Of a stretch of DNA of 57,804 nt, positions 647 through 46,956 are shown piece by piece. The translations under genes and the position numbers were made by a program. Below the pieces are notes generated by a model. It did no database searches and had not been told where the DNA came from. It worked only from the letters and a program-made list of their open reading frames with translations. The number at the start of each line of letters is the position of its first letter. The stretch's first letter is position 1. Source of the stretch: Patescibacteria group bacterium (GTDB lineage Bacteria > Patescibacteriota > Minisyncoccia > Phycocordibacterales > UBA12079); assembly GCA_034661035.1 (NCBI GenBank), contig JAYEKM010000029.1, positions 1 through 57,804 on the forward strand. The letters are read 5' to 3'.

Positions 647-657
647 AAATTTATTAT

Positions 658-1053: not shown

Positions 1054-1065
1054 TTATATTCAGTG

Positions 1066-1560: not shown

Positions 1561-1660
1561 AAAAATAAATAAATAAATAAATATTAATAATTGATAATAC
1601 TTTAAATTACAAAATAGAATTCGTAATTCAAAGAATAAACCTCGACAATTTATAGCTTAC

Positions 1661-1689
1661 ATTATAAGTCCAAACTAAACTAAATCCAA
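1661..1689 (-). promoter_or_regulatory. Candidate sigma70-type promoter for the pilin genes
   Basis: On the minus strand: TTGGAT (1689-1684), 17-nt spacer, TATAAT (1666-1661). It sits about 100 nt upstream of the pilin ATG at 1560. Confidence 0.4.
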
Positions 1690-1719
1690 ATCCAACAAGA
1701 AATAAATGTGGATAATTAA

Positions 1720-1829
1720 TTAGATGTTAGGGATTAGAATGTTAGTTATTTAGGAAAGAAAAAATTGGCTTCGCCAATTTTTTCCCCTAAAACCTAAATC
1801 TCTAAGACTCTAAGACTCTAAAACCTAAC
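1720..1829. repeat. Long imperfect palindrome with a bidirectional-terminator core (family member 1)
   Basis: Perfect 12-bp core GAAAAAATTGGC-ttc-GCCAATTTTTTC (1758-1784). It is flanked by arms of ~8-nt words containing TTAG (left) and CTAA (right, e.g. ctaagact ctaagact ctaaaacc). Located between the pilC stop and the pilin promoter. Confidence 0.6.
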
Positions 1830-3034: not shown

Positions 3035-3044
3035 ATTTTTATTA

Positions 3045-4106: not shown

Positions 4107-4120
4107 AATAAATTAGTCAA

Positions 4121-4303
4121 AAGTTTATAAAGTCTAAAGTCCGTAAAGTCAGAAAAATTTGGGAAGCAAATTTTTCTTTATTTTCAGTTTCTAACTCTTA
4201 TTATTATACAGGAATTAAATAATAAAACAGAATTTGTTTGTGGAAAAATTGCCTTGCGATTTTTTTGCTTTCGACTTTATGAACTTTATAGACTCTACAA
4301 CTT
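4121..4303. repeat. Long palindromic intergenic element with terminator cores (family member 2)
   Basis: Outer ~30-nt inverted arms made of ~8-nt words: agtttataaagtctaaagtccgtaaagtc (4121-4150) versus gactttatgaactttatagactctacaact (4273-4303). Inner perfect hairpin AGAAAAATTTG-ggaag-CAAATTTTTCT (4151-4177). A second hairpin lies at about 4244-4267. Confidence 0.55.
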
Positions 4304-6010: not shown

Positions 6011-6056
6011 ATCTATCAACTTTTAACGAATTAAACAACAGTTTGTTGTTTAAAAA

Positions 6057-6695
6057 TTATTTAATCATTAGGTCATATAGTTCACCGCTACACCTATCCA
6101 TGTCTTCAACTGCAGTATCAAAGTTTTGAGAATTATCATATTGGCAAATCATCTCTTTACCAACCCAATCTTGGTTAGGATTTTTGACGAATTTTGATTC
6201 TACCTCACAATAAGCACCTTTTGGACCTATTATTTCATACCTATAGGTTACATCTTGACCAACTAATCCACTCAAGCCTTCAACTTCAACCTCGACTGTA
6301 GCTAAATCACATTTAGCAAAATTTTCTTCGAAACAATCTTTATCACTACAAGCTGTAATAACAGGGGCGTTTACGTTGACACCTGTATATTCGCCATCTG
6401 TTCCAACAGGAGAGAAAGGGTTATTACGCCCAACCTCTTGTAATCTTAATTCCATACTAAAGTCTTCTAAATTTTGAAAGGCAACATCTTCAAACATATC
6501 TTGGTCTAAGGTCAAAGTTCTTAACTGTGTAAGAAGTTCAAGAGTTTCATCCCCGACAGCCTGAACTCCCATAGTTGAAACCAATTGAGAATCAGAGGAA
6601 GCTGCACTTGCCCAATACTGATAAGCAAAGAAACAAATCATTATGAAAAAAATACTTATCAATAAATTATTTTTATTTTTTGAACTTTTTAACAT
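6057..6695 (-). CDS. Membrane-anchored hypothetical protein in the pilMNO operon (PilP-position protein)
   Basis: N-terminal TM segment and a Cys-rich C-terminal domain. Occupies the slot after PilO. No family recognised. Confidence 0.5.
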   Translation of the reverse strand: MLKSSKNKNNLLISIFFIMICFFAYQYWASAASSDSQLVSTMGVQAVGDETLELLTQLRTLTLDQDMFEDVAFQNLEDFSMELRLQEVGRNNPFSPVGTDGEYTGVNVNAPVITACSDKDCFEENFAKCDLATVEVEVEGLSGLVGQDVTYRYEIIGPKGAYCEVESKFVKNPNQDWVGKEMICQYDNSQNFDTAVEDMDRCSGELYDLMIK

Positions 6696-6699
6696 AAAT

Positions 6700-7245
6700 T
6701 TATTTTAACCAATATGTCTTAATACTCATATTATGCTTATAGACATTATCAAGTGAAGTCTTTAGAGTGTAGTCAATAACATCGACTATCCTTAAACTAT
6801 TACCTAAATCGTCCATAAAACTCACAAAGTCTTCATATGAGGCTTCAACTGTAAAGGTTAGCCCAATAGAACCATACCCGTCTAGATTAGGACCTAAATC
6901 ATTCACTTGGTCACCTTCATTAATTTCTGTATCTACTTCAACACTTCTAATCATGCAACCATTCTTTACGGCAATCTGATTTATCTCCATAATGAGTCTA
7001 ACATTATCAACATTATTCGGTAAAAGCTTCTCAAGTCGATTAACATTCACTTTAGTGAAAGTATTATATTTAACCAAAAGCTGTTGTCTTATCTCCCTTA
7101 GTTCTTTAGACTTAGTTAAAGCATTATCATATTCTGTTTGTTCCTCCTTTAATACACTCGTCTCCGTATAAGCAGGATCAATATAGGAAAAGAATAACCC
7201 TCCCGCTAAAATTATGAAAAAAATTGGAATTATAAATTTAAACAT
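6700..7245 (-). CDS. PilO-like pilus assembly protein
   Basis: 181 aa, N-terminal TM followed by a coiled coil and then an alpha/beta domain. Position after the PilN-like gene. Confidence 0.55.
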   Translation of the reverse strand: MFKFIIPIFFIILAGGLFFSYIDPAYTETSVLKEEQTEYDNALTKSKELREIRQQLLVKYNTFTKVNVNRLEKLLPNNVDNVRLIMEINQIAVKNGCMIRSVEVDTEINEGDQVNDLGPNLDGYGSIGLTFTVEASYEDFVSFMDDLGNSLRIVDVIDYTLKTSLDNVYKHNMSIKTYWLK

Positions 7246-7249
7246 TTTT

Positions 7250-7816
7250 TTATTCTAAACTATTTCTATAGGAAATAAGTCTTGGATCTATTCTAGCGGT
7301 CACACTAAAAACAACTCCACCGTCAAGCCCCACTCCTAAATCAGAAAAAATTAACTCATCCATGTTTTTATTTTCTCCAAAGACATCTGACTGTAAAGCA
7401 ACTGTTGCATAGGAATCAGCTGTGCCACTCATTGAAATAACCCATCTATCTTCCTCTGGATAGAAAGCCATTTCCTTGAAACTTACTTCTTGCAGAGTAT
7501 TTTGTTCTAGTAATTCAAACAGCGGAGTTAAAATAGTGTGTTTATCTAGAATCTTTTTAGCAGATTCTATCCGTTTATCTATTAAACTTAGTTCTTTTAT
7601 GATTTCCTTCTCGAGACTACCTTTTTCCCTATCCAAAATACTTGCCATATTTTCTATTTGACCTTCAAGATAACGATTGTAAAGAAAAACTGTTGAGGCA
7701 GTTAGAATCATCAAAATGAAAACTGCTACTCCAACCCCCATAAACAAACCACCAAAATCTTTCTTTTTAGTCTTCCTCCTTCCATGACTTTTTTTAGGAA
7801 TAAAAGATGTTTGCAT
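7250..7816 (-). CDS. PilN-like pilus assembly protein
   Basis: 188 aa, basic N-terminus, single TM, coiled coil. Directly downstream of pilM. Confidence 0.55.
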   Translation of the reverse strand: MQTSFIPKKSHGRRKTKKKDFGGLFMGVGVAVFILMILTASTVFLYNRYLEGQIENMASILDREKGSLEKEIIKELSLIDKRIESAKKILDKHTILTPLFELLEQNTLQEVSFKEMAFYPEEDRWVISMSGTADSYATVALQSDVFGENKNMDELIFSDLGVGLDGGVVFSVTARIDPRLISYRNSLE

Positions 7817-7933
7817 TAATAATATTATACATTAAAAAAGAAACCTTTACACAACAGAAATAAACAAAACTGTGGATAGAAAACAAAACAACCAGTCCTA
7901 ATTTAATTCTGTGTATTTTTTTAATTTTTATAT

Positions 7934-9094
7934 TTATTTTTCTAAACCTCTCAAAGCAAGACCTACCGCTACAGCAAATTCTGGTCCTATTTCTTTTAAA
8001 ATATCATCTAAAAAGGCTGGGGTTTTAATCTTCTCAAAAGGATCGGCTAATACTGATTCAATTTCTAGATGTTTAAGGGAAGATTCAGTTAAACCTTTAA
8101 TAACAGACCCTCCTCCTGTAAAGACCACTGTGTCAACACTCTTCCCTTGTTCACTTTGGAAATTAATTAGAACCTTTTGTGTTTCTTCAAAAATATATTT
8201 AAGATTCGTTAAAACAATATCTGAAACTTCTTTATCTGGACCCTCTCCCGTTAAACCAATACTCCTTTTCTTCTTTTCCGCTTTTTCAATTGAAATTCCT
8301 ACAGTTCTTGAAATGGCAGCACTAATATCCTGTGAACCACGATTAATAAGGTGTGATTTCTTTACTACACCGTATTCCACAATATACAATTTGGTCACAC
8401 TAGACCCAATATCTAGAATAGTTGATACCCCTGCGTTATGTCCCAAAACAGACCTAATTGTACTGAAAATTTCTATCTCAAGAAAATCTAAACCTAACTT
8501 AGCATTCTTAATAATGTCGTTATATCTCTCTATGGCATTTTTATGGATGGCTACCACAAAAATTTTCATGGTATTTTTACTTTTAGATTTAGTCTTTTCT
8601 GTCTCAGTGGCAGGTCTCATGTCCTCAAGAGAGTCTTCTTCTGGTTCTTCATCCTCAATAACAACTCTCCAATCAAGCATCACTTCCGTAATAGGAACAG
8701 GAATAAAACGTCGAGCTTCAATAGGAACAATCTTCTCTAATTGGTCATTAGAAACTCTTGGAATTTCCATTTCAAATATCAAACTGGAGCTAAGAGGAAT
8801 AGAAGAACCACAACTCATCACATTGACGGTTGACTCCTTTAACAAATCTAAAATGGCACCACTTATTTGTTTATTGGTTAAGTTAGTTGATTTTCCTGAT
8901 TCTACGTTGGCATAAGGACCTAAAGCCAATTCTCCATATGTCTCCAAAACAGCTCCTCCCTTACTTTTTTTAAGTTGAACAATCTTAATGGCAGACCCAC
9001 CGATGTCCAGTCCCAAAAAACTTCCTTCCTTTTTTTTGAAGAATTTCGAAAGAGAAAAATTAATTCCTTTCCCCCCTAAAATATTTTCGAACAT
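7934..9094 (-). CDS. pilM: Type IV pilus assembly protein PilM (actin-like ATPase)
   Basis: FtsA/actin-fold phosphate motifs GLDIGGSAIKIV, ILDIGSSVTKL, VFTGGGS. First gene of the pilMNO block. Confidence 0.8.
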   Translation of the reverse strand: MFENILGGKGINFSLSKFFKKKEGSFLGLDIGGSAIKIVQLKKSKGGAVLETYGELALGPYANVESGKSTNLTNKQISGAILDLLKESTVNVMSCGSSIPLSSSLIFEMEIPRVSNDQLEKIVPIEARRFIPVPITEVMLDWRVVIEDEEPEEDSLEDMRPATETEKTKSKSKNTMKIFVVAIHKNAIERYNDIIKNAKLGLDFLEIEIFSTIRSVLGHNAGVSTILDIGSSVTKLYIVEYGVVKKSHLINRGSQDISAAISRTVGISIEKAEKKKRSIGLTGEGPDKEVSDIVLTNLKYIFEETQKVLINFQSEQGKSVDTVVFTGGGSVIKGLTESSLKHLEIESVLADPFEKIKTPAFLDDILKEIGPEFAVAVGLALRGLEK

Positions 9095-11363: not shown

Positions 11364-11364
11364 G

Positions 11365-17399: not shown

Positions 17400-17414
17400 C
17401 AAATATAAACTTTT

Positions 17415-20094: not shown

Positions 20095-20127
20095 TCCCTA
20101 AGTAAAATATGCTAATATTATGAACAT

Positions 20128-30463: not shown

Positions 30464-30610
30464 TGCATCTCCTTTCATTCGTAAAAGCTGAGAATTAATT
30501 TATACAAAAATATCAAAGTACAATACTTCTACATAGAATAGTATGGATAAAGATAAATTTTGTCAATAGATCGTTATGGTTCAATACCTATGCAACACTT
30601 TAATCGTGCA

Positions 30611-32222: not shown

Positions 32223-32357
32223 TTTTATTACCTCCTTTTTTAAATTGTAAGGCTCAAGACCTTTTATTTTAGGTTTAAAATTATATGTAATTCTCAAAGA
32301 ACTACACTCCTATAAAAAGGATAGGATTAAACAAGAAAATTGTCAAGTGTATGAAGT

Positions 32358-34304: not shown

Positions 34305-37300
34305 TTAAATAGGTTCATAAATAGGTATAGTTTGATCTGAAGTTATAGTTATATTAACAGGAGCTATTCCGTTACCAAAAATGGTAATCATTTTCTCACC
34401 AGTAAACCTGTAGGAAGCAAAAATCTTTAAAATTGACCCTAGACTATCCGTGAAGTAATCAGCAAAAGAGAGAGTCTCTGGAGTAAATGTAGCTGTATTA
34501 GTTGTCTCTTCTCCTGGAGATTCAGGTAAGCTTGATAGATCTGCTGTAAAAGAAACATCATTCCGGTAACCATTCCAAGAAATAACTTCAATGTCAATTC
34601 CTGGTTCAGTTTCAACACCTCCTCCAGCAAAGTCAGCTTCTACTTCGGTAGGTGTAGCAAATAAATTAAAGTAGGCAAGAGGCTCAAACGTAGCTGTGTC
34701 TTCGTAGCTTAATTCATGATAGCAAGTAAGAGTATAAACTGTTTCTTCGAGAATAATTTTGTCAATTAAATAATCTCCTACAGAGGCACAAGTAGCTTCA
34801 GAAGAACAAACATTTGTCTGGCTATAACCTGTGTCACTTTCTAAATCACACCTAACTACATTTTGTGTCTGCCACTCAGCAATCGGTTTGAGACCTGTTC
34901 TTTGGTTATGAACGTTGAAACTACCTGAAATTATCTCTGGAGGATCTACGACAACGGTAATTAAATCTGTTGAACAATTAGTTGTTCCTCCGTAACCTGT
35001 AAATGAACCTGTGTAGGTAATATCTTGAGTCTCTGTTACAGATGGATAATCCTCGACACTACCACTAGCCAGCGGAGAAATAGAACCTACCCCACGGTTA
35101 ATTGAAGCTGAATTAGTGTAATTTGAAGTCCAAGATAATGTCGTACTATCACCTAAGAAAACAATATCTTCTGATGAATTCAAGGTGCAGGTTGGAGAGT
35201 GAGGTGTAACAACAACACCTCCGTTACCAGCCCCTGCATCAGTACTACAAGTCCCCACCTCACCTCCATCTGAATCATCTTTTACAGTAAAAGTACAAAC
35301 CTCTGTCGCGGCTGGTCCATAAGGGAAATTAAAGACAACAGCTGGACTAGCTGGGCTATTCAAAGGAATTGAACCATAATCAGCACCGCCGGCAACAGGA
35401 CCTGTACAAGAATATTTTATATCAGAGGCGTAGGTTGAACTCCAAGTCAATATACTTGAACCAGGAGATGTAACAGAAGTAGGGTTAAAAGCAGCTGTAC
35501 AGATAGGACAATCTTTTACCCCTGGAACTTCTCTCGTCGTACCACAATTACTTGTCTGCGTCAGAGTAGTTCCCTCACAAGTGGTGCTAGCAGCTGGTTC
35601 CCATATCGTTGGAACACAACAATTTTTTGTTCCTGTAGCTGTCCGAGTTGTTCCGCAATTACTTGTCTGGGTAAAATTATCTCCACTACACTCAGAGGAT
35701 GTAGGAGGAGACCAGCTTGATGGAGTACAACCACCACAATTCTTTGTTCCTGTAGCTGTCCGAGTTGTTCCGCAATTACTTGTCTGGGTAAAATTATCTC
35801 CACTACACTCAGAGGATGTAGGAGGAGACCAGCTTGATGGAGTACAACCACCACAATTCTTTGTTCCTGTCGCTCCCCGAGTAGAACCACAATCACTTGT
35901 CTGAGTAAAATCATCTCCATCACACACAGAAGCCGTAGAAGGTGACCAACTTGATGGGGTACAAGATGTCGTACTAACGATTACAGTAGAGTTACTTCCA
36001 CAGGTAGCAGTCTTACCAGCGCTATCAGCTACAGTTATAGTACAAACCTGATTTCCAGTTTGATTTACATCAAAAGAAAGTGTTGCTGAACCAGAAACAG
36101 GTAAACCACTAGCCGCTGCTGTAATGGGTCCAGTACAAGCGTAACTTGCTGAAACAGCATTGCCACTCGAATACCAAATGGCTGTGCTAGAACCAGGAGC
36201 AACAACATTGTAATTAGACCAACTTAAATTACAAGAAAGTTCTTCAGCAGAATTGATAACCAAACTGTCAAAACACGAATATTCTTTACCAGAACTACTT
36301 ACTGCAGTTACTTTAAGTAATATCTGTTTGTAATTTTTAATTACATTCTTCAAATCACCTGACAATCCTGTTGCTGTTGCAAGATTAACAGTTAAAGGCT
36401 GAACAATCTTTAATGAAGAATTTGCATTTTCAGATGCCCACTTAAAATAAATTGAATCACCAACTTTAACACTTGACACATCTTGTCCTGATGAATTAAC
36501 CCAACTTACACTACAGGTAGGATTTGCTGGAGGACTAGTTGGATCTATTCTTAGAGTATCATCACACGAATATTCAACTCCATTGCTATTTTTCACAGTG
36601 ATGACACATTTTTCAGTTCCGGGGTTATCAAAAGTAAAAGGATAGGATCCGTTTGGATTAATTGAACCCCAACCATCATTCCAAGACAGCACTCCTGAAC
36701 AAGAATATTTAGCTGAAACGGCGTTAGAAGAGGAGCTCCAAGTAAGAGTGCTTGAATCACCAGTTTTTATTCCCCCATCATTATCATCCCACTCAACAGT
36801 ACAAGAAGGGGTCTGATCTGCCACAGTATATGTATAATCTTTGGAACCTATATACTTGAAGGTAGGAGTATATGAAGGACAACTAGGTCTACCCCAAATA
36901 TCATTGTAAGAACAAGAACTACACACTGGATAAGGTGGGGGTGACTTAATGTTAACGCACATACAACTCATACCTACCATACCACTGTCTACCTCATATT
37001 TTATATCGCAATTAGCACTTGGGTAATTATCAAATCCCCATTCCTCATCTAAACAACTACCAAGTGGCATTAATTGTGTCGCTGAATTTAAACAATAAGA
37101 AGACATATCATAAACACTTTCATTCGCATAAAATTTTAGAGTAATTGTATGTGTTCCTGGTGTTGTCGATTTAGTAGTATTTACTGGCGAAACCTGCGAC
37201 CTAACTTTTGTGGTAGGATTTTCATACATGGTTTTACCAACAGAAACACCGTCATGGAATACTTCAATATAACCGTCGTCGAGATTTAAATAAGCGTTAT

Positions 37301-38750
37301 TACACCCACCCGAAGTCAATTGTTGCAAACTAACAGGAACAGGATTGGAATTCATGTTTATACTATAAGTAAAAAATGCTCCATAACCATTACTACTATT
37401 AGGAATAGCCCCTGCCCAAGAAGCCGCGTTTACATCCTTAGCACCACCTAACAACATAGTTGTACCTATCAGTACAAGGAATAAAGCAGTATTTTTAATT
37501 TGTTGGAAAACATCATCTTGTTTTCTCCTTTTTCTAAACAGATATAGACCATAAAAAACAAGAACTACTATCACAACAAAAGTAATTAAGAAATATGAAT
37601 CCTTTTTTCCATTTTTAATACTCAAAATCGCTTCATCTAAAATTTGCTCTTCAGACTTAATTAGCAGCGAAACCTTAGGATCCTGACATCTTTTTAAAAT
37701 AGGGACACTGACAGAGGCTAACCCAAATGAATTATCATTAGGAGTGTAGTAAAAACGGTCAGAACAACCATCAATAACACCCTCAATAACAACATCATCT
37801 AATTTGGTTCCCATACCAAGCCTTGAATCTTGAAAATCATCAGCTGAAGGAGTCCAGAGAAAAGAAACTTCTGCTAAATCCCCTTCCAAGTAATACCCGC
37901 TATCCAATTTAATATTATGAACAGTAGCGCTCCCTCCTCTGACAACATAATGTATGGCAATTGAATTAGAGGTTATCTTTTCACCATTATCGTTTAAACC
38001 AGACAAAGATACTTTAGTGTCATAAGCTTGGGGTATTTCAGGCTTAGGTATAACAAAAGAAATCATCTCAATTCCCTCAGATTCAATGTTATTAGTCCCA
38101 TTTAAATTATCTTCATTAACAAAAACAATTTCCCCAAAAGTTGACCTTCTGTGAGTCTCGAAAATCGGTTCAAACTCTACTTTTTCTGGAGTAAGATTAC
38201 TAACTCTACAATTTAATACAAGAGTTTCTTCGGGAGCAACATCAACACCTTGTCTAATATTATAATTTTCTCCATTTCCTTCCCCAACAATTAAATAACA
38301 AGAATCGTTGACAATGTTAAGATACTCACCTGTTCCGTCTAAGACGATATCTCCAACATTATTAATAGCAACAGGAAGACCAGCTTCATTTCTAGCAACA
38401 ATTTCCAAACCGTAGGTTCCTCGCAAAAAAGCAGGGGCTGAATATTTTAAATCTCTAGAAAGAGTTTCCATTTCTCCGATATCTAACACCTCTGTATAAA
38501 CTTTCTCATCAATAGTACCCCCATCTTCTATTAGCCGAATTCCATATTTTATGCCCGACTGAGCCCCTTCTCCATTAGTTATGTCAAAGGAGACACTTAT
38601 GTCATTATCTTCATAAACCAAAACAGGATTACGAATTTCAATATCAACAGAAACCCAATCTTGTGCTTGAACTGTAAGACAAGCTGACCAAACAACCAAA
38701 AGAGACAGCGTAAATGCAACCCTTTCTATAAATCTAAAATTTTTTTTCAT
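34305..38750 (-). CDS. Giant (1481 aa) Cys-rich multi-repeat surface protein with internal TM pair and conserved C-terminal module
   Basis: Signal peptide, then a ~385-aa ectodomain, then a TM, RKRRK and a second signal-like hydrophobic segment (AKDVNA/AS). After that come about five ~90-aa Ig-like repeats with a conserved Cys pattern and four 39-aa Cys repeats. The last ~210 aa are shared with the 44271-45491 protein. Confidence 0.8.
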   Translation of the reverse strand: MKKNFRFIERVAFTLSLLVVWSACLTVQAQDWVSVDIEIRNPVLVYEDNDISVSFDITNGEGAQSGIKYGIRLIEDGGTIDEKVYTEVLDIGEMETLSRDLKYSAPAFLRGTYGLEIVARNEAGLPVAINNVGDIVLDGTGEYLNIVNDSCYLIVGEGNGENYNIRQGVDVAPEETLVLNCRVSNLTPEKVEFEPIFETHRRSTFGEIVFVNEDNLNGTNNIESEGIEMISFVIPKPEIPQAYDTKVSLSGLNDNGEKITSNSIAIHYVVRGGSATVHNIKLDSGYYLEGDLAEVSFLWTPSADDFQDSRLGMGTKLDDVVIEGVIDGCSDRFYYTPNDNSFGLASVSVPILKRCQDPKVSLLIKSEEQILDEAILSIKNGKKDSYFLITFVVIVVLVFYGLYLFRKRRKQDDVFQQIKNTALFLVLIGTTMLLGGAKDVNAASWAGAIPNSSNGYGAFFTYSINMNSNPVPVSLQQLTSGGCNNAYLNLDDGYIEVFHDGVSVGKTMYENPTTKVRSQVSPVNTTKSTTPGTHTITLKFYANESVYDMSSYCLNSATQLMPLGSCLDEEWGFDNYPSANCDIKYEVDSGMVGMSCMCVNIKSPPPYPVCSSCSYNDIWGRPSCPSYTPTFKYIGSKDYTYTVADQTPSCTVEWDDNDGGIKTGDSSTLTWSSSSNAVSAKYSCSGVLSWNDGWGSINPNGSYPFTFDNPGTEKCVITVKNSNGVEYSCDDTLRIDPTSPPANPTCSVSWVNSSGQDVSSVKVGDSIYFKWASENANSSLKIVQPLTVNLATATGLSGDLKNVIKNYKQILLKVTAVSSSGKEYSCFDSLVINSAEELSCNLSWSNYNVVAPGSSTAIWYSSGNAVSASYACTGPITAAASGLPVSGSATLSFDVNQTGNQVCTITVADSAGKTATCGSNSTVIVSTTSCTPSSWSPSTASVCDGDDFTQTSDCGSTRGATGTKNCGGCTPSSWSPPTSSECSGDNFTQTSNCGTTRTATGTKNCGGCTPSSWSPPTSSECSGDNFTQTSNCGTTRTATGTKNCCVPTIWEPAASTTCEGTTLTQTSNCGTTREVPGVKDCPICTAAFNPTSVTSPGSSILTWSSTYASDIKYSCTGPVAGGADYGSIPLNSPASPAVVFNFPYGPAATEVCTFTVKDDSDGGEVGTCSTDAGAGNGGVVVTPHSPTCTLNSSEDIVFLGDSTTLSWTSNYTNSASINRGVGSISPLASGSVEDYPSVTETQDITYTGSFTGYGGTTNCSTDLITVVVDPPEIISGSFNVHNQRTGLKPIAEWQTQNVVRCDLESDTGYSQTNVCSSEATCASVGDYLIDKIILEETVYTLTCYHELSYEDTATFEPLAYFNLFATPTEVEADFAGGGVETEPGIDIEVISWNGYRNDVSFTADLSSLPESPGEETTNTATFTPETLSFADYFTDSLGSILKIFASYRFTGEKMITIFGNGIAPVNITITSDQTIPIYEPI
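35510..35977. repeat. Four tandem 117-bp (39-codon) repeats, the central two identical
   Basis: 35626-35742 and 35743-35859 are identical by eye (period 117: tcctgtagct at 35631 and 35748). The flanking copies are diverged. They encode CTPSSWSPPTSSECSGDNFTQTSNCGTTRTATGTKNCGG. Confidence 0.85.
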
Positions 38751-38864
38751 AATACATTGTTTTGTTAAATTTTTAATAATTTTTTAAAAAATGAATATAT
38801 ACTATTATTGTAATACTATTTTACTTTAAAATCACATTAATTTAATAAAAACACAGATAAGAAT

Positions 38865-40619
38865 CTATTTATTTCCTAAAACGTCATCAATAGAAACTAA
38901 ACCTTGCACTGCTTTAAAAAAAGCTTCTTCTCTTAATGTTAAAGTTCCCTCTTCTTTTACTTGTTTTTCAATTTTGTCTAAGGGAACTTTTTCCCTCAAA
39001 AGTTCTCTGGTCGCAGGGCTAACCCTTGATATCTCATTTATCATAATCTTTTCAGTACTTTTGCCTTTTGATTTGAAAAATTTTACTTCTGACCACGGTT
39101 GTTCGCTCAATAGAATATTCTCATTAACTAGAGCTACCATGACCTTATTTAGATCAACATACCTAGAAATACTCTTAATTTCAGAAACACTTAAATAATA
39201 CTCCTTTTTTTCCTCAGGAAGTCTGGGTATCATTTTCTGCAGGATAACTATCTCTAAACCATTTATTATTAAAGTAGAATCAATTTTAGAGGATGAGGTC
39301 ATTTTATAGACAACATCTGATGAGGATCTTGCTTTCATCTCAACGACAGACAGAGCTAATCTATCTTCATTCACAATACTAGATAATTTCAAAAGACTTG
39401 AAATAGATTTATTTGAATTTAAATCTTTTAAACCATCCACTGCGACAACATCACAATCCTGTTTAGCTAAATTATTTATCCCTTCTGAGACGCCAAAACC
39501 TATTTCTGAATTAATTACTACCTGACTTATTCCTGACATCTGGAAACCAATTGAATCTTCAACTGTCCCAATACTAAGACTGGGGTCTTTTAATATATCT
39601 AAAATCGTGTAAAAAGTAGTCGTCTTACCGGATTGTTTCCCGCCAGCAATCAAGATCATACCTTTCTTTCTACCTAAAACCTTATATAGCAAATCAAGTC
39701 CTTCTCCGTGAAAACCAGCTGCTTCTAGGGAAAAACCTGAATCACCTTTTCTTAATATATTTAAAACAGATTTCTCTCCCCATGAAGAAGGAATTACATG
39801 TATTTTGAGATCAATTTCTCTCCCATCAAAACCTACTTGGAAACGACCATTTTGACATAAGTTATCTGTATCTAATCTCAAATTAGCTAGCGTTTTAATT
39901 TTCAAAGCCAGAAAAGTAGCCGATCTTTTAGGTAATACCATTGCTGAATACAGACTACCATTTATCCTATACCTAATTAAAACATTATCCTCTTGAGGTT
40001 CTATATGGATACTAGAAACATTTTGAATCAAAGCGTGTTTTAAAAGCAATTCAAAAACTGAGTTTACTTGCTTACTTCTGGCTAATTCCAGTATTGATTC
40101 TCTGGGTAATTTCTTTAGTGTACCATTTGGAATAGTTTGGAAAGAAAGAGAGCCTTTTTGGATCATTGCCCCATATTCATTTTTTAGCATTCCTTGATAC
40201 TGTGAAATTGCCTTATTTAAAGAATCTTTATTGGTCAAATAAGGAACTACCTTTAAACCAACCATTTTCTTTAGAAAATCAACTTTTTCTAAACTGTCTA
40301 AATCCAAAACAGCAACTTTTAAGGATTTCTCATCTCTATCAAAGGCAATTATGTTATGTCTCCTTGTAATTGGTTCCGGTATGGTAGAAAGAATAGCCCA
40401 ATCAATTTTTTGTTTACTCAAATCAACGAAAGGAATCCCTGACACCTTTGACTGTAAACTCTGTAAATCTTGTTCGTTAAGAATTCCTTTCCTTATTAAA
40501 ATATCACATGATCTAAGTTTTTTTTCCTCTGCTTCTTTCACAGCCAAATCAAAATCATCCTGGTTTACTAAACCAAGTTCTAAAATTAAATCTTCTACTT
40601 TGTTTTTATCTATAAACAT
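38865..40619 (-). CDS. PilB/GspE-like protein with degenerate ATPase core
   Basis: GspE N-domain and P-loop GGKQSGKTTT are retained. Where PilB has DVIMVGEIRD this protein has DVVAVDGLKD, and where PilB has TGHLVFSTIHTN it has EDRLALSVVEMK. Confidence 0.75.
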   Translation of the reverse strand: MFIDKNKVEDLILELGLVNQDDFDLAVKEAEEKKLRSCDILIRKGILNEQDLQSLQSKVSGIPFVDLSKQKIDWAILSTIPEPITRRHNIIAFDRDEKSLKVAVLDLDSLEKVDFLKKMVGLKVVPYLTNKDSLNKAISQYQGMLKNEYGAMIQKGSLSFQTIPNGTLKKLPRESILELARSKQVNSVFELLLKHALIQNVSSIHIEPQEDNVLIRYRINGSLYSAMVLPKRSATFLALKIKTLANLRLDTDNLCQNGRFQVGFDGREIDLKIHVIPSSWGEKSVLNILRKGDSGFSLEAAGFHGEGLDLLYKVLGRKKGMILIAGGKQSGKTTTFYTILDILKDPSLSIGTVEDSIGFQMSGISQVVINSEIGFGVSEGINNLAKQDCDVVAVDGLKDLNSNKSISSLLKLSSIVNEDRLALSVVEMKARSSSDVVYKMTSSSKIDSTLIINGLEIVILQKMIPRLPEEKKEYYLSVSEIKSISRYVDLNKVMVALVNENILLSEQPWSEVKFFKSKGKSTEKIMINEISRVSPATRELLREKVPLDKIEKQVKEEGTLTLREEAFFKAVQGLVSIDDVLGNK

Positions 40620-40644
40620 TTTTCTTTAAATACAGGTAAGGTGA

Positions 40645-41199
40645 TTATATTTCAATTTCCAAAGGAACGTCTAGTGCATCCTCTATTATAATTGGGGTAA
40701 ATTGAATTATCACTTCTTCTGCACTAAATTGTTTTGCATCCTTAATATCTTCTTTAGCTGTTACAGTTATTTGTTGACCAACTTTCAAGTCACTGAAGAT
40801 AACATCTTGTTTGTTAAACATTTCTGGAGGAAAAATCGGTTCTATCATTACTTCAGGATTTTCCATCTGTGCTTTTATCTTCTCATCAAACTCCTTCATC
40901 TCCTGCTGATACTGTGCTTGGTCCTTTTCTACAAATTTGTAAAACTTAGCCCCAGTTGTTTCAATAGTCCTTATATCTGAGCTACCAACAGAAGTTGGAT
41001 ATAATGGATAAATTTTCAAAACGATTTTATCACCGTTTATCTCTTGGATATCACCACTAATAGTCATTATTTCCATATCTTCTATACCCGGCATTGCTAC
41101 AAACCCTTCTTCATTATTTGACGGAACAGCCATTCCTAAAATAAAAAATATGAGGGCTGTGATTAAAATTATTACGACTTGGTTCATTTTTTTTCGCAT
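40645..41199 (-). CDS. Membrane-anchored hypothetical protein
   Basis: N-terminal TM and an acidic 150-aa ectodomain. Confidence 0.55.
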   Translation of the reverse strand: MRKKMNQVVIILITALIFFILGMAVPSNNEEGFVAMPGIEDMEIMTISGDIQEINGDKIVLKIYPLYPTSVGSSDIRTIETTGAKFYKFVEKDQAQYQQEMKEFDEKIKAQMENPEVMIEPIFPPEMFNKQDVIFSDLKVGQQITVTAKEDIKDAKQFSAEEVIIQFTPIIIEDALDVPLEIEI

Positions 41200-41267
41200 T
41201 TTTTGTTATTTGTTAAATTATAATTTTTTGACTATTATTTAGTAATTGAACTCTCTAATAAAAACTT

Positions 41268-43841
41268 CTATTTACTTTTAAGTAGCTTAATCTCATTTTT
41301 TAATTCATCAATTTGTTTTTGCTGTTCTTTTATTGCCTCAATCAATGGAGCTACTAAATTACTATATTGAATTGATTTTAATCCTGTTTCTTCATCAGTC
41401 ATTACTAATTCTGGGTAAACTTTTTCTACATCTTGAGCAATCAAACCAATATTAACACTATCACCCCGCGCTTCTTCATCCTTCCACTTAAAAGATACTC
41501 CTTTTAACTGCAATATCTTACTTAACGAACTATCCAATTCTGCAATATCTTTTTTAAGTCTTATATCTGAACTAATAGTATAACTACCTGTAGTAAGATG
41601 TCCATAATTATAGATATTGTCAGAAACAATATAGTTCAACCTATTTGTGCTGGCTGGGTCAAGATAATAAGCATGATAGTCACTATCCACAAATTTAGTA
41701 GCATAATGAGGGGAACTAGTCGTTAAGGTAAGTGTTACAGAATCTGAAGTGCCTCCCCCTGTTAGTCCTGTCCCCGCAACGACAGCTGTTATGTCACCAG
41801 AACCTGCGTTTACACAAGAAAAAGTCCCTTGGGCTGAGTTTATATTTTGCACAACTTGACCAACAGAACAGGCTCCTGTTAATTTTTTTTGAATAGAAGT
41901 AAGATACTGTCCACTAACAGAAATACCATTCAGATACAGAATGTTTAAATAAGAAGTACCATCCATATCCAAAAGATAACTGCTCGGATTATTTCGATCA
42001 CGGAAAATAGTCGCTCTCAGATCACTAAAAGCAGAAACACTGGATGGATCAACGTAATAACTAGTACTGTTAGCGTCATATTCCCTACCATTGTAACCAT
42101 AACTTCTATAAACATAAGTTGCACTACTTCCTCTTGCTGTTACTGTTGCTAATGTGTCTGACTCTGAAGTTATCCCTGCACTCGGCCAGCTACTTCTATA
42201 AACACCACCAAGAGTAATACCATTTACCGTAAGAGCGTTAAATCTAGAAGTACTTGCTGGGTTTGCGTAGTAATTTGTATCATTATAATCATAAAAGATA
42301 GGAGATCGAATATCTGAATAGCCATAAACTCTATCTGCAGCAACAGTATTTAACCTAGAGGTACTCGCTGGATCAAGATAATAACCAGTATTATCCCAAT
42401 CATGAATTTTGTCTGCGATATATATATCTGAAGTATTGTCTGATGAACTGCTTCCAACATATAAATCATTATAAGCATAAATACGACTTAATATAGAAGT
42501 AGAAGCTGGGTCTACATAATAACCAATGTTATTTTGATCATAAAAAATAGGGGCTCGCATAGAAGCATCAGCTCTAAAATATCCTGCTGTATACATATTT
42601 CCTGAACCATATATCTGCCAACTACCTGGACTAGAAGCACTCCCTAACCTAATTCCATTAACATTGACCATCTCTCTATTACCAGCACTGTTTCCTTGAG
42701 CTAAAACTTCATTTAATGTTTGGTCATCTGACGATGAAGGACAATAGGTACCGTTTTGACGACAAACATTTTGCCCCCCCGAAACAACGTTAGAGGCAGT
42801 AAGCGTACCACCAACAGTTACACCGGCTGAAGTCGTTGTCAATCTAGTAGCTCCATTGTACATTGCATAAAAAGGTCCATTTCTAGTACCATAATAAATC
42901 CACTCATTATCGCGGTCATTATATCCACCAATATGACTACTATGCATCATGAGTGTTACGTAATTAGCATAGTTCATCCCGCTCCAACCGCCTCTTGTGC
43001 CAGATATTTGCCATGAACCATAATTAGAACTAGTATTTGGATAAAAATGTGCTCCGTTCACACTCGTTGAATACAAACCATACCCTCTTACATCAAGCCA
43101 GCTACCAAGTCTTCCGTAATTAGAACCACCTTGCTGTAACTCAAAACCATTGTTTAATCTTAAAACACTAACTTCTTTAACAGCATGATTATTCATATCC
43201 AAATCTTGTGTAGCTGAATGATTCCCAAGATTATCTGCTCCTGATGGCCAAGCTGAAAGAGACACACCACCAAGATTTATTGTACCTACTTTCAGAGTAT
43301 TTGGAATATAGACGTTATTTGCTCCACTGGTAGCAGAATCGTTAACTGACATAACTAAAGTACTCATATTGTAATCATTATAGAAACGAATACCGTTGTA
43401 ACTAGCGTTGGCTCCTAGTTTTATCCCGGTATGGAAAGCTATTCTTAAATCAGGGTAGGGAGAAGTCCATGATCCTGATTCTCTATAGATAGCATAAGCA
43501 CTACTCATTCCACTAGCAAAATACATTCCGTAAGGATGATCTGTAGATACACCATAATTATTAGCTAAATAAAAAGAACCTAACTTATTGGTGTATGAAG
43601 TACTACTAGGATCAATGTAATAACTTGTACTTGGGTAGTCGTAATAGACAGGGGACCTCATATCTGTATTTGATTGCAAAGAACCTTGTTTTAGTTGGAA
43701 GTTAGCTCCAACATTAAGTGGTTCTGAAGTATTAGAAGAAGGTGGGTTAGCTGTTGGTCCTGTCCAAGCTGATACCAAACTAAAGTAAATTATGAAAGCT
43801 ACTGCTGATAGGATTATTATTTTTGTTGTCTTGATTTGCAT
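41268..43841 (-). CDS. Tail-fibre-like secreted fibre protein with C-terminal S74-type intramolecular chaperone (autoproteolytic) domain
   Basis: Signal peptide MQIKTTKIIILSAVAFIIYFSLVSA (alternative upstream ATG at 43883). Repeated YYxDPxSTS motif. The last 100 aa read SDIRLKKDI...GVSFKWKD...IGLIAQDVEKVYPELV...coiled coil. Confidence 0.75.
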   Translation of the reverse strand: MQIKTTKIIILSAVAFIIYFSLVSAWTGPTANPPSSNTSEPLNVGANFQLKQGSLQSNTDMRSPVYYDYPSTSYYIDPSSTSYTNKLGSFYLANNYGVSTDHPYGMYFASGMSSAYAIYRESGSWTSPYPDLRIAFHTGIKLGANASYNGIRFYNDYNMSTLVMSVNDSATSGANNVYIPNTLKVGTINLGGVSLSAWPSGADNLGNHSATQDLDMNNHAVKEVSVLRLNNGFELQQGGSNYGRLGSWLDVRGYGLYSTSVNGAHFYPNTSSNYGSWQISGTRGGWSGMNYANYVTLMMHSSHIGGYNDRDNEWIYYGTRNGPFYAMYNGATRLTTTSAGVTVGGTLTASNVVSGGQNVCRQNGTYCPSSSDDQTLNEVLAQGNSAGNREMVNVNGIRLGSASSPGSWQIYGSGNMYTAGYFRADASMRAPIFYDQNNIGYYVDPASTSILSRIYAYNDLYVGSSSSDNTSDIYIADKIHDWDNTGYYLDPASTSRLNTVAADRVYGYSDIRSPIFYDYNDTNYYANPASTSRFNALTVNGITLGGVYRSSWPSAGITSESDTLATVTARGSSATYVYRSYGYNGREYDANSTSYYVDPSSVSAFSDLRATIFRDRNNPSSYLLDMDGTSYLNILYLNGISVSGQYLTSIQKKLTGACSVGQVVQNINSAQGTFSCVNAGSGDITAVVAGTGLTGGGTSDSVTLTLTTSSPHYATKFVDSDYHAYYLDPASTNRLNYIVSDNIYNYGHLTTGSYTISSDIRLKKDIAELDSSLSKILQLKGVSFKWKDEEARGDSVNIGLIAQDVEKVYPELVMTDEETGLKSIQYSNLVAPLIEAIKEQQKQIDELKNEIKLLKSK

Positions 43842-43863
43842 ATGTTTTTTATTAATTATATTT

Positions 43864-44253
43864 TTAATCAATGTAAGTATCATCAGAAATAAAAATGGAT
43901 TCCGGACCCTCTAAGTTTTCATTAAAATCTGGCACTGTTTTTTCAGAGGGTGACATATAAGTTTCTTGTGGGGAAGAAACTGATTTAGGTTTCGTAGAAA
44001 CAATATCCTCAGATAAAGGCAACTCTTGATGTTCTTCTGCAGGAACAACCTCCTTAATACTTTCAGAAGAATAGATATCTCCAGGAGAAGGAATATATGT
44101 ATCATGAGAAATATTATATTCTTGTATGTCAGGGTCTGAACTCCTAGTCAAAACTCCTACTACTGCAAAAAATATTAACAAGATAATTAACAAGAATAAA
44201 ACAACTATAATTACCCTTAATTTATTATTTTGATTACTTTTGTTATTCACCAT
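43864..44253 (-). CDS. Small membrane-anchored hypothetical protein
   Basis: N-terminal TM and a Ser/Pro/Glu-rich tail. Confidence 0.5.
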   Translation of the reverse strand: MVNNKSNQNNKLRVIIVVLFLLIILLIFFAVVGVLTRSSDPDIQEYNISHDTYIPSPGDIYSSESIKEVVPAEEHQELPLSEDIVSTKPKSVSSPQETYMSPSEKTVPDFNENLEGPESIFISDDTYID

Positions 44254-44270
44254 AAATTAAAATCTAAAAA

Positions 44271-45491
44271 TTAAATTTCTTCATAAACTGGCTCGATATT
44301 TCCAGCATCAATGATTATACTAACTGGGTACAAACCATTTCCTTCAACAGCGACTGTTTTCTGACCGATAAAGTGATACGAAGCAAAAACTTCTAATGCA
44401 GACCTTGTACCAGCTGTAAAATATTCAGCAAAAGACAAACTCGGACGAGAGAAAATAGCTAGATTAGTAGTTCCGTCTCCAGGAGATTCTGGTAGTTGAG
44501 ATAAATCAGCTGAGAAAGAGATATTACTATTAAAACCATTCCAAGAAGTCACTCCTATTAATGATACTGGTGTAGTAGTTGCTCCTCCCCCAGAGAAATC
44601 GATTGTAACCCGATTAGGACTTCCATTTAATTCAAAATATCTCAAAGGAGTGTGTGTTTCTGTGACACTCATCCCTATATCATTAAAACATGTTATGGTA
44701 TAAGTTGTTTCTTCCATCACAGCCATATCTACAAGTAAATCCATTTCTTCACATTGGTTTTCATTATGACAAACGTCTAAATCTTCATAACCAGTATCGC
44801 TCACTAGGTCACAGGAAACAACATGTTCTGTCTCCCAGACAGCTCTAGGTCTATTACCAGTCACAACACTAGCCACTTGGAAAGTACCTAGCCTTATCAC
44901 AGGAAAGTCACCTATAAATTCTACCCCTCCATAGGCAGGATTGAAGTCAACCCAACCAACAACTTCACCAGCCCAAGCATAACCTTCAAAAAAATTAGTG
45001 TTCTCGTTAAGGACAACTCCGTAATTTATACTATCTGTAGTTTGTTTACTTAAACTTATCCAACCATCCCAACCATCGTCAGCATTCATTCCAGCCAGAG
45101 CTTTAGCCCAGCCGTTTAATTCTAAACCATTTAACTTTGCTCGACAGACCCCCGTCGGACACCCGCTCAGCTCGTTCTCATTAAAACTAATCCAACCGAC
45201 ATTATCACTCCAAGCATAGCCAGATAATTTTTTATCAGCTCCAATACTAACCCCATAATTGGATGTACTACAAGTATCTGGGTCAATACAATTAAAACCA
45301 ATCCAACCAATGTTATCACTCCAGGCATAGCCAGATATATTATCATTAATTGCTGCTTTAGCCACAGGTAAAGCATAGTCACTCTGCCCTCCCTTTTCAC
45401 CAAAACTGTAAGCTATTAACAATAATAAAAATAGAATAATTAAAACCAGTACCCAGTTTTTAAAAAATTTGTTTTTTATTATTTGTTCCAT
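44271..45491 (-). CDS. Secreted repeat protein (GYAWSxNxGWIxFN repeats) with the shared C-terminal module
   Basis: Signal anchor. Three repeats: SGYAWSDNIGWIGFN, SGYAWSDNVGWISFN, EGYAWAGEVVGWVDFN. The C-terminal ~210 aa are collinear with the end of the 1481-aa protein. Confidence 0.7.
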   Translation of the reverse strand: MEQIIKNKFFKNWVLVLIILFLLLLIAYSFGEKGGQSDYALPVAKAAINDNISGYAWSDNIGWIGFNCIDPDTCSTSNYGVSIGADKKLSGYAWSDNVGWISFNENELSGCPTGVCRAKLNGLELNGWAKALAGMNADDGWDGWISLSKQTTDSINYGVVLNENTNFFEGYAWAGEVVGWVDFNPAYGGVEFIGDFPVIRLGTFQVASVVTGNRPRAVWETEHVVSCDLVSDTGYEDLDVCHNENQCEEMDLLVDMAVMEETTYTITCFNDIGMSVTETHTPLRYFELNGSPNRVTIDFSGGGATTTPVSLIGVTSWNGFNSNISFSADLSQLPESPGDGTTNLAIFSRPSLSFAEYFTAGTRSALEVFASYHFIGQKTVAVEGNGLYPVSIIIDAGNIEPVYEEI

Positions 45492-45825: not shown

Positions 45826-46956
45826 ATGTTTGATTTAAAAGTAATTCATTCAGTTCTCGACCAGTTAGAACAGGAAAAAGGAATCTCTAAAGCCTCTTCA
45901 ATAGAAACAATTAAATCAGCTTTAGCTAGTGCTTATAAAAAAGAGTACGGTAAGAGAGGTCAAATCATTAGAGCTGATTTTGACATAGATAGTGGAAAAA
46001 CAGACTTTTTCCAAATAAAGATAGTTGTAGATGATACTCGAGTTAAAACAGAAGAGGAGGAAGACGTTGAGGGAGATGATAGAATCCGTTTCAATCCTGA
46101 ACACCATATTTTGATTGAAGATGCCCAAAAAATAAAGAAGGATGCCGAATTAGATGAAGAAATAATCTTTCCGTTGGAACCAAAAAGTGATTTCGGAAGA
46201 ATAGCTGCCCAGACAGCTAAACAAACCATTATTCAAAAGATTAGAGAAGCTGAAAGAGGGTCTATTTCTAAAGAATTTGGCGGAAAACAGGGAGAAATTG
46301 TCAGCGGAATCATCCAAAGAGTAGAAAGAGGTAATATTTTTGTTGATTTGAAAAGGGCCACAGGAATACTTCCTTATTCTGAACAAATCCACTCAGAAAG
46401 GTTTAAGCCAGGAGAACGAATCAGAGCTTATTTATCTTTAGTTGAAGAAACATCTCGAGGAATATTTTTAAGACTTTCTCGATCTCATCCTCAATTTCTT
46501 TACAAACTTTTTGAGACAGAAGTACCTGAAATAGCCAGTAAAACTGTAGAAATAAAGAACATTGTCAGAGAAGCTGGTTCCAGATCAAAAATAGCCGTCC
46601 ATTCAAACGATGAGAACATTGACCCAATTGGATCATTGGTTGGTCAAAGGGGGGTTAGAGTTTCAACAGTCATGAGTGAATTAGGTGGTGAAAAGATAGA
46701 TATTATAGAATGGTCAGAAGATCCTAAGAAATTTATTACTGAATCCCTTTCACCGGCTAGAATCCTCAGTATTGAATTAGATGAAAAAGAAAAAAAGGCT
46801 GTTGTTGATGTAACTGAAGATCAACAATCACTAGCAATTGGGAAAGGTGGTCAAAATGTTAGATTAGCCGCTAAGTTGACTGGTTGGAAAATTGACATAA
46901 AAGGCATAGGGGACGAAAATGTGGAAACTGAAGAGGATAATAATGAAGAAAAATAA
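45826..46956 (+). CDS. nusA: Transcription termination/antitermination factor NusA
   Basis: N-terminal domain, S1 domain (GEIVSGIIQRVERGNIFVDL) and two KH domains (GxxG: GQRG, GKGG). Confidence 0.9.
   Translation: MFDLKVIHSVLDQLEQEKGISKASSIETIKSALASAYKKEYGKRGQIIRADFDIDSGKTDFFQIKIVVDDTRVKTEEEEDVEGDDRIRFNPEHHILIEDAQKIKKDAELDEEIIFPLEPKSDFGRIAAQTAKQTIIQKIREAERGSISKEFGGKQGEIVSGIIQRVERGNIFVDLKRATGILPYSEQIHSERFKPGERIRAYLSLVEETSRGIFLRLSRSHPQFLYKLFETEVPEIASKTVEIKNIVREAGSRSKIAVHSNDENIDPIGSLVGQRGVRVSTVMSELGGEKIDIIEWSEDPKKFITESLSPARILSIELDEKEKKAVVDVTEDQQSLAIGKGGQNVRLAAKLTGWKIDIKGIGDENVETEEDNNEEK

Follow-up and report, generated by a model that had tools for sequence, protein, structure and literature searches.

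We analysed a stretch of 57,804 nucleotides (nt) from a Patescibacteria group bacterium (assembly GCA_034661035.1, contig JAYEKM010000029.1, positions 1-57,804; UBA12079, Phycocordibacterales, Minisyncoccia), hereafter called the window, and in it a run of six genes that includes a degenerate relative of the type IV pilus ATPase PilB. An earlier sequence-only reading of this DNA had described the run as a surface-fibre locus built around that ATPase. The open reading frames (ORFs) agree with the layout it gave, six minus-strand genes separated by 17, 22, 68, 25 and 114 nt, as follows:

44271..45491, minus strand: gene 1, GYAWS-domain protein of 406 amino acids (aa), with an N-terminal hydrophobic helix, a repeat domain and two Ig-like domains
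43864..44253, minus strand: gene 2, small N-terminally anchored membrane protein of 129 aa, hydrophobic segment 14-36
41268..43841, minus strand: gene 3, S74-capped fibre of 857 aa, with Pfam Peptidase_S74 and a WxGP head
40645..41199, minus strand: gene 4, N-terminally anchored protein of 184 aa, a sporadic member of the locus
38865..40619, minus strand: gene 5, PilB-like pseudo-ATPase of 584 aa, Pfam T2SSE and MshEN, with degenerate motifs
34305..38750, minus strand: gene 6, Cys-rich surface protein of 1481 aa, a lineage-specific addition

Significant Pfam matches were found only in gene 3 (Peptidase_S74) and gene 5 (T2SSE and MshEN) and in none of the other four genes, and NCBIfam agrees. 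Genes 3 and 6 have Sec-type signal peptides (cut between VSA and W, and between VQA and Q, respectively); in genes 1, 2 and 4 the N-terminus forms a hydrophobic anchor. A scan for the class III signal peptide of prepilins, G|F/M-x-x-x-E behind a short basic leader, found no such motif in genes 1-6, the only three in the window being those of the pilins at 188-1560, and Pfam gave no match to PilC, PilM, T2SSF or N_methyl domains in the six-gene locus, in accordance with what had been read from the sequence.

Both homology and fold place gene 5 in the PilB/GspE family, but it falls short of four catalytic criteria of that family. It matches T2SSE (PF00437) with 157.3 bits against a cut-off of 24.9 (E 5.8e-46) and, in its N-terminal part, MshEN/T2SSE_N (PF05157) with 50.1 bits against 23.1 (E 2.7e-13). 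It stays below the NCBIfam thresholds for the PilB equivalog TIGR02538 (233 vs 676 bits), for TIGR02533 (217 vs 630 bits) and for ComGA (89 vs 300 bits), and shares only 24% identity with the PilB encoded in the canonical pilus operon of the window. The AlphaFold2 (AF2) model of the monomer, with a predicted local distance difference test score (pLDDT) of 84.8, is confident also at residues 405-470, where the His box lies; its best structural matches are GspE 4PHT and PilB 5TSH (E 2e-32), and the MshEN/N1, N2 and RecA-like C-terminal domains are all kept. The motifs were read by alignment to the canonical-operon PilB and 17 relatives. Walker A is kept as GGKQSGKT, with its Lys present and in accordance with GxxxxGK[ST]. 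The Asp box reads VEDSIG as opposed to E-D-P-[IV]-E, the second Glu being gone; Walker B reads VAVDGLKD, with Gly-Glu changed to Asp-Gly and the catalytic Glu of hhhhGE missing; the His box reads EDRLALSVVEM as opposed to TGHLVxSTLHT, with neither His left. Arg363 and Arg398 are replaced as well, a loss seen clade-wide. A P-loop without the Walker-B Glu and the His box had already been reported for this protein, and the alignment, which could have brought intact catalytic residues to light, confirms that they are absent.

As MshEN domains can be receptors of cyclic di-GMP, the tandem motifs RLGxx(L)(V/I)xxG(I/L)(L/V)xxxxLxxxLxxQ were also inspected by eye: in place of R-L-G, the first has K-V-E and the second R-S-C. 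The NCBIfam model NF053729 gave 15.6 bits, far under its cut-off of 38, and a role of the gene 5 MshEN as a cyclic di-GMP receptor is thus unsupported.

A database search with gene 5 retrieved about 28 cluster representatives with 45-65% identity that share the degenerate motifs, and hundreds of relatives at approximately 40% identity with every catalytic motif; all 97 of the 97 intact relatives that were aligned carry all motifs. In a neighbour-joining tree the degenerate proteins, here called dead PilBs, are monophyletic, with a long stem, and sister to the intact PilB encoded beside nusA, which indicates a single origin in one ancestral event. Motif counts for this clade are based on 36 sequences, of which 20 are left once pairs more than 80% identical are removed. 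Both His residues of the His box are missing in 36/36 sequences (20/20 non-redundant). The second Glu of the Asp box is kept in only one of the 20 and its Pro in none, and the Gly of Walker B has become Asp in all 20. The Walker-B Glu itself is retained in 13/20, the window's protein having Gly at that position. E354, the first Glu of the Asp box, and D390 are invariant in the clade, and new residues were fixed in 20/20 members, among them L336F, Y359F, R386K and G395D.

These counts bear on the possibility that gene 5 is still an active ATPase which uses non-canonical residues (for example, Asp395 together with Glu396) to drive a reduced machine with parts encoded elsewhere. The intact Walker A of the window's protein, the invariant E354 and D390, the Walker-B Glu of 13/20 members and the retained fold would be in line with such an activity. 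However, the window's protein has Gly exactly where the Walker-B Glu should be, both His of the His box, the second Glu of the Asp box, R363 and R398 were lost in the whole clade, and the Walker-A Lys is Arg in 7/20 members. Moreover, Chiang and colleagues reportedly found in 2008 that mutating these motifs in PilB, PilT and PilU of P. aeruginosa abolishes function. We therefore regard a still active motor as very improbable.

The loss of catalytic residues was not followed by decay of the gene. Compared with its closest relative, found in locus L092 (86% aa identity), gene 5 has a ratio of nonsynonymous to synonymous substitutions (dN/dS) of 0.107 at a dS of 0.63; for the same pair of organisms the ratio is 0.037 for NusA, 0.132 for gene 1 and 0.158 for the start of gene 6. 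The identity of gene 5 to its relatives tracks that of TIM and PGK, and the ORF is full length in all members except that of L092, over about 50% amino-acid divergence. The His-box region (405-470) is the most altered, with 39% identity within the dead clade as opposed to 79% among intact relatives, and the remaining regions of the dead proteins keep 54-62% identity within the clade. Dead PilB is under purifying selection and is not a decaying pseudogene.

The origin of gene 5 can be traced through its genomic position, a slot limited by three conserved genes:

45826..46956, plus strand: nusA, left anchor of the slot, divergent from gene 1 (Pfam NusA in relatives)
33506-34267, minus strand: tpiA, right anchor, starting 37 nt past gene 6 and in the same direction
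32358-33485, minus strand: pgk, right anchor, directly past tpiA, a conserved flank

The loci of relatives (numbered with the prefix L) were examined up to 10 kb on either side. NusA lies on the same side in L001-L004, L085 and L090 by Pfam, with 62-86% identity by tblastn, and TIM-PGK is found downstream of the dead pilB or of pilB-pilC-pilins in all relatives. In L001 (GCA_900089805.1) and L002 the order is nusA, gene-1 homologue, small transmembrane (TM) protein, fibre(s), dead pilB, tpiA, pgk, HIT, recJ, RNase H and comEC. In L003 and L004 the same slot holds nusA, an intact pilB, pilC (with or without pilins), tpiA and pgk, and an intact PilB in a nusA, pilB-pilC(-pilins), tpiA-pgk arrangement was found in seven loci in total (L003, L004, L016, L085, L090, L119 and L163). 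A scan of one genome per species provided 11 further dead-PilB loci (L005-L015), and by tblastn PilC is absent from all of them. Dead PilB occupies the slot between nusA and tpiA in L001, L002, L005 and L007-L015, never with PilC, and in 6/6 metagenome clusters. A prepilin motif was present in 9/13 loci with intact PilB as opposed to 0/17 with the dead one. Four of the loci (L005, L006, L012 and L015) have a Paceibacteria-type gene order in records of metagenome-assembled genomes that say 'Candidatus Saccharibacteria' or 'Woesearchaeota archaeon', which are probably automatic mislabels.

Judging from this gene order, gene 5 is the positional ortholog of the intact PilB that heads a pilB-pilC-minor-pilin operon in other Paceibacteria, and the locus is consequently an eroded type IV filament operon and no free-standing new apparatus. 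PilC and the pilins were lost, the catalytic residues of PilB were lost, and what remained of PilB was later maintained by selection. This changes the statement of the sequence-only reading that the combination of genes matches no named system; the conserved synteny that it had proposed to look for does exist.

The conservation does not extend to all six genes. By tblastn, gene 1 was found at every dead-PilB locus among L005-L015 with upstream coverage, and a fibre with the N-terminus of gene 3 at 7/8 dead-PilB loci. Gene 4, by comparison, has homologues only in L005, L013 and L014 (34-48% identity), and the position of gene 6 is filled only in the two closest loci from GTDB (L005 and L006) and in the metagenome locus L092; in L001, L002 and L009-L015 gene 6 is absent and tpiA comes directly past the dead pilB. 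The set that recurs across the clade is thus gene 1, the WxGP-head fibre and dead PilB, usually with a small TM protein also, and the idea of a six-gene unit has to be given up.

These data also weigh on a possible self-contained, unnamed secretion or assembly apparatus of six genes, with the pseudo-ATPase at its centre and no dependence on type IV pili. The tight spacing and common direction of the genes, the absence of PilC, PilM and pilins from the locus, and the lack of any known family for gene 1, gene 2 and the gene 3 head could all be expected of such an apparatus. However, genes 4 and 6 are not conserved alongside the rest, having been added recently or sporadically, the ATPase corresponds by position to an orthologous PilB that in relatives works together with PilC and pilins, and a hexameric motor without catalytic residues or platform has no evident way to do work. 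The genes that accompany the ATPase are also found beside ordinary pilus operons, as described below. Nor does the co-directional run stop at gene 6: it extends into tpiA-pgk without a terminator, no terminator-like site was seen between the six genes or ahead of tpiA, and a scan of the locus for promoters and terminators gave counts at the level of shuffled sequence, which sets no operon limits. An independent apparatus is, in our opinion, improbable.

The conserved companion of dead PilB, gene 1, has no Pfam or NCBIfam match. Its AF2 model (pLDDT 87) comprises a helix at 5-31, a domain of beta-hairpin repeats at about 50-190 and two Ig-like sandwiches at about 200-406, and the protein ends in YEEI. 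The GYAWS repeats had been correctly recognised before; that the protein is secreted is uncertain, because the modelled hydrophobic helix is long and has no clear cleavage site, and it may be membrane-anchored rather than secreted. Foldseek returned only tandem Ig-like matches and left the GYAWS repeat domain unmatched, and a sequence search of the PDB gave nothing significant for this domain. At E<=1e-5 gene 1 has 1206 homologues, all from Patescibacteria and all named 'hypothetical', which have in common the N-terminal GYAWS repeat domain and vary in their C-terminal modules (PKD, DUF4215, fn3). The family profile run against 1.84 billion representatives gave 14,964 matches at E<=1e-3, which is no clean count of GYAWS proteins because many come from the Ig-like module, with up to 22 copies in giant proteins. 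These giants, of 1,200-2,800 aa (P0268-P0274), contain 12-22 tandem copies of the module, pointing to a large pool of related adhesin-like proteins. In addition, GYAWS proteins and gene 6 have a conserved aromatic-acidic C-terminus, [FY]-[EQ]-E/P-[FI] (YEEI, YEPI, FEEF, YEEF), located in the window at 44271-44285 and 34305-34320 and seen in L001, L002, L085, L087, L089, L090 and L091. Its residue E405 reaches a conservation of 90% or more in the alignment, and this ending may be a C-terminal recognition signal.

Gene 3, the fibre, had been given as 871 aa long with a chaperone domain of phage type. The domain is indeed there: Peptidase_S74 (PF13884) is matched at residues 758-813 with 68.4 bits against a cut-off of 22 (E 6.6e-19), with the autocleavage pair Ser758/Lys763 within 'SDIRLK'. 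The length was not upheld, as the gene coordinates give 857 aa, 871 aa requires an upstream ATG at 43883 that overlaps gene 2, and the homologues begin like the 857-aa form. After the Sec-type signal peptide the mature N-terminus is 'AWTGPTANPPSSNTSEPLN', a conserved segment that we call the WxGP head; six 'YYxDPxSTS' repeats follow, and the C-terminus has a coiled coil. The S74 domain, the Ser/Lys pair and the coiled coil together predict a trimeric, self-cleaving fibre that sheds its chaperone.

Gene 3 has a counterpart in phages, since its C-terminus resembles many tail-fibre PHROGs and the tip of the S16 long tail fibre, and the neighbours of one related locus (L089) are GP38- and Gp10_C-like. 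The locus could then be a remnant of a prophage or tailocin, with tail-fibre genes left by the phage. The similarity to PHROGs and PDB entries is, however, limited to the last 100-200 residues, the locus has no capsid, terminase, integrase or baseplate genes, the GYAWS family has no relative in 2.9 million viral contigs (IMG/VR, alignment-based scan), and at least 11 species have kept the chromosomal slot. A phage origin of the locus was thus rejected, as extremely improbable. Likewise, in comparison with the S74 fibres and spikes of phages (K1F endosialidase type; S16 tip, PDB 6F45), gene 3 is alike in the S74 domain, the Ser/Lys pair and the coiled coil that follows, and differs in its chromosomal slot, its Sec signal peptide and a head of bacterial type in place of a phage baseplate-attachment domain.

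The WxGP head, xWxGPxxxPPxxN..P[LVI]N, is not restricted to the dead-PilB clade. In all of the seven lineages sampled outside the clade it is found at the start of one to four proteins encoded next to the GYAWS gene, joined there to C-termini of unrelated kinds (fibrinogen-like, Gp10_C-like or Cys-rich). The first 230 residues of gene 3, used as a query, retrieved only 27 proteins, which match at about 100-230 and not in the head, and were of no use for modelling the head. In L001, a second WxGP-head fibre with S74 lies past pgk (11863-14779), beside a 510-aa Hint/intein protein with a signal peptide.

We defined as a cassette a GYAWS-repeat gene with at least one adjoining gene for a Sec-exported protein whose mature N-terminus has the WxGP-head pattern given above. 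Genes 1 and 3 of the window fit this definition, the pairing occurs in the 7/7 outside lineages and in most loci of the clade, and no Pfam model describes it. Directly upstream of an intact pilB-pilC, three prepilin-like genes and a PilX-like gene, the cassette was found in L085, L087 and L090, the left flank of L087 being ArgRS and not nusA; L119 and L163 have the same GYAWS and WxGP-head genes upstream of an intact nusA-type PilB. A second type of pilus operon is involved in L094, where the cassette is directly downstream of a PilM-N-O-B-T-C operon, and in L162, where a GYAWS gene is directly ahead of pilM of a canonical-type operon. This last arrangement (5791-20387, on a 769-kb contig) runs through a 1283-aa Cys-rich giant, a GYAWS-PKD protein, pilM-N-O-B, a response regulator between pilB and pilT, pilC, a pilin, a prepilin peptidase and another pilin. 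A metagenome scan seeded with GYAWS gave 70 non-redundant loci, 19 of them assessable (at least 5 kb upstream and at least 6.5 kb downstream). In 10/19 a pilB lies 1.3-5 kb downstream, as opposed to a chance expectation that we estimate at 1-3% if a 0.6-1 Mb genome carries one or two pilB genes. Six of these ten pilBs are dead (none with PilC), three are intact and nusA-type (all with PilC) and one is of the canonical type. Conversely, neither GYAWS nor the WxGP motif was found in 67 PilB loci of other lineages. The cassette is statistically linked to pilus operons of two non-orthologous types.

As a result, the description of the locus as built around the pseudo-ATPase does not hold, as the cassette also occurs with an intact PilB, with a canonical-type operon, alone, or in the slot without pilB. 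The cassette is an undescribed unit, both old and widespread, and in many but not all cases it lies with pilus genes.

Of the other members of the locus, gene 2, whose anchoring in the membrane had been rightly predicted, has a Pro/Glu/Ser-rich tail past the anchor and no significant family match; by size and position, small TM proteins (95-154 aa) adjoin the GYAWS gene after it in L001 and L002 and before it in L085, L087, L090, L091 and L157. Gene 4 has no family match and is absent upstream of the dead pilB in L092. Gene 6, as previously noted, is a Cys-rich protein, with 50 Cys and four 39-aa Cys-rich repeats, and shares its C-terminal module of 218 aa with gene 1 (47% identity between residues 190-406 of gene 1 and 1264-1481 of gene 6, E 5e-61). 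Its signal peptide is followed by a 380-aa ectodomain, an internal TM hairpin at 386-440, Ig/PKD-like modules and the shared module. The hairpin region (window 37430-37600) consists of a TM helix, a basic loop RKRRKQDD and a second segment like a signal peptide that ends in VNA, as if two exported proteins had been fused to make gene 6; in L005, too, the junction is unbroken. A tandem repeat of 117 nt at 35615-35964 encodes the Cys-rich repeats, and the 90% identity of its three copies indicates that the expansion is recent. Two spurious ORFs (107-120 aa), on both strands, overlap this repeat.

The window also contains an ordinary pilus machine:

188..9094, minus strand: canonical type IV pilus operon, with PilM, PilO, PilB, PilT, PilC and three N-methyl pilins (Pfam)

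This operon is separate from the six genes, as had been stated, and is the only PilC and pilin set of the window; to call it complete was slightly generous, because a prepilin peptidase was not seen among its genes. Within it, PilM is encoded at 7934-9094, PilB at 4295-6019 and PilC at 1829-3034. The L094 operon is its ortholog (PilB 51%, PilC 57% and PilT 54% identity), while its PilB and PilC are 40% and 30% identical, respectively, to those of L087, where the intact PilB is of the nusA-linked type. It is presumed to be the partner machine of dead PilB.

According to these data, it is probable that the locus consists of an eroded second type IV filament operon, linked to nusA and tpiA, together with a surface-fibre cassette, and that the pseudo-ATPase was kept for a non-catalytic role. 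The ancestral layout, which relatives still show, is a small TM protein, GYAWS, one to three Sec-exported WxGP-head proteins, PilB, PilC, three minor pilins and a large PilX-like protein ahead of tpiA. In the clade of the window PilC and the pilins disappeared, leaving a PilB stripped of its hydrolysis residues yet folded and constrained. The cassette was kept and enlarged, with an S74-capped fibre that is predicted to cleave itself and, in the nearest relatives, a giant adhesin-like protein borrowing the C-terminal Ig-like module of gene 1. The exported cassette proteins may form an attachment structure on the cell surface, in which the N-terminal helix of gene 1 would serve as a membrane anchor and the fibre head would dock to gene 1 or to pilus components. 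Dead PilB could be an adaptor or regulator that dispenses with hydrolysis and uses its retained N1/N2 domains and RecA-like fold. Its most probable target would be the machine encoded at 188-9094, on which it could act, for instance, by occupying PilM/PilC sites or by joining PilB hexamers. A host-attachment role, already suggested from the sequence, is plausible.

The main rival is that dead PilB is only a historical neighbour: the cassette would be self-sufficient, relying on Sec export and self-assembly, and dead PilB would be a leftover or have an unrelated moonlighting role. Several observations favour it and weigh against an eroded operon whose ATPase still serves the fibres. Stand-alone cassettes are common, as 9/19 assessable metagenome loci have no pilB nearby and L089, L091 and L093 also stand alone. 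In L157 (556-4640) the slot holds nusA, a 95-aa TM protein, a GYAWS protein of 309 aa, a 658-aa head fibre and tpiA, with no pilB at all, which indicates that the cassette has no general need of a PilB in cis, dead or alive. The flank order from nusA to tpiA-pgk-HIT-recJ-comEC is conserved beyond the dead-PilB clade itself; with all dead PilBs derived from one event in a region of conserved order, simple inheritance could explain why they occur together with gene 1 and fibres of the gene 3 type. The Arg at the Walker-A Lys in a third of the clade means that even nucleotide binding may not be conserved. Finally, the dead pilB of L092 has one in-frame TGA (1692-1694) at the Gly of 'SIGTVED'; dN/dS is about 0.1 in both halves around it, and the TGA may have arisen very recently as a nonsense mutation, may reflect an error in the assembly or may be recoded. 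On the other hand, a leftover is difficult to reconcile with the low dN/dS, the full-length ORF in the other members and the clade-specific fixed residues, and the cassette is strongly enriched beside two pilus operon types with three different flanks. We consequently consider a mere neighbourhood unlikely, and L157 represents, for the eroded operon that we prefer, the end state of the series.

A broader proposal, about which we are doubtful, is that the GYAWS anchor and the WxGP-head proteins of Paceibacteria are unrecognised surface fibres that are not pilins, are exported by Sec and depend on a type IV filament, being mounted on a pilus or pseudopilus or pushed by it through the envelope. 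In the clade of the window the machine would have been discarded and the motor turned into a hydrolysis-dead adaptor to the canonical pilus.

Compared with known systems, gene 5 resembles the PilB/GspE/ComGA ATPases in domain order, fold and descent from an intact PilB of the same slot, and differs from them in lacking the second Glu of the Asp box, the Walker-B Glu, two Arg and both His, and in having neither PilC nor pilins encoded in cis. The nusA-linked pilB-pilC-minor-pilin operon of other Paceibacteria has the same slot and flanks and, in L085, L090, L119 and L163, the same GYAWS and WxGP-head genes; the clade of the window differs from it by the absence of platform, pilins and the large PilX-like protein and by its degenerate ATPase. 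In composition that operon resembles the ComG and type II secretion pseudopilus systems, which have an ATPase, a platform and three to four prepilin-like proteins. A functional analogy may be drawn with archaeal FlaH/ArlH, a KaiC/RecA-like protein that binds ATP and regulates the FlaI motor: dead PilB is likewise a P-loop protein without a working catalytic site beside an active motor of the PilB family. It is, however, a PilB paralog, and its interaction with the motor is hypothetical. In Saccharibacteria, two distinct type IV pili are reported (PMC11623550), both described as functional and with roles in episymbiosis. The window likewise has two diverged pilus gene sets in a member of Patescibacteria, and differs in that its second set consists of a dead motor and fibres that are not pilins. 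In the literature searched on Patescibacteria pili, dead PilB paralogs and S74 in the candidate phyla radiation, we found neither the locus nor the cassette described, and no report of the GYAWS domain, of the WxGP head or of a conserved clade of PilBs that are catalytically dead.

Past pgk, two tandem genes for secreted cysteine proteases of the Peptidase_C10 family (streptopain-like), each with a Spi-inhibitor prodomain, lie on the minus strand at 29015-30478 and 30759-32297, between pgk and recJ. They look like an insertion, because relatives have pgk-HIT-recJ there, and could play a part in interactions with a host.

A large part of bacterial diversity belongs to Patescibacteria, which presumably live in attachment to other cells; to our knowledge, the attachment molecules of those outside Saccharibacteria are almost unknown. 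The searched literature offers no precedent for a conserved and constrained PilB without catalytic residues, that is, for a pseudo-enzyme derived from a pilus motor. The intact operon, the dead motor without platform and the locus with no motor form a natural series in which a machine is dismantled while its surface proteins persist. Moreover, the repeated presence of the cassette beside two types of pilus operon points to cargo or accessories of type IV filaments that are not pilins. The locus thus supplies candidates for how small-genome Patescibacteria build attachment structures and, if the link between cassette and pilus is functional, these would be direct targets for cryo-electron tomography, proteomics and the new genetic systems of Patescibacteria.

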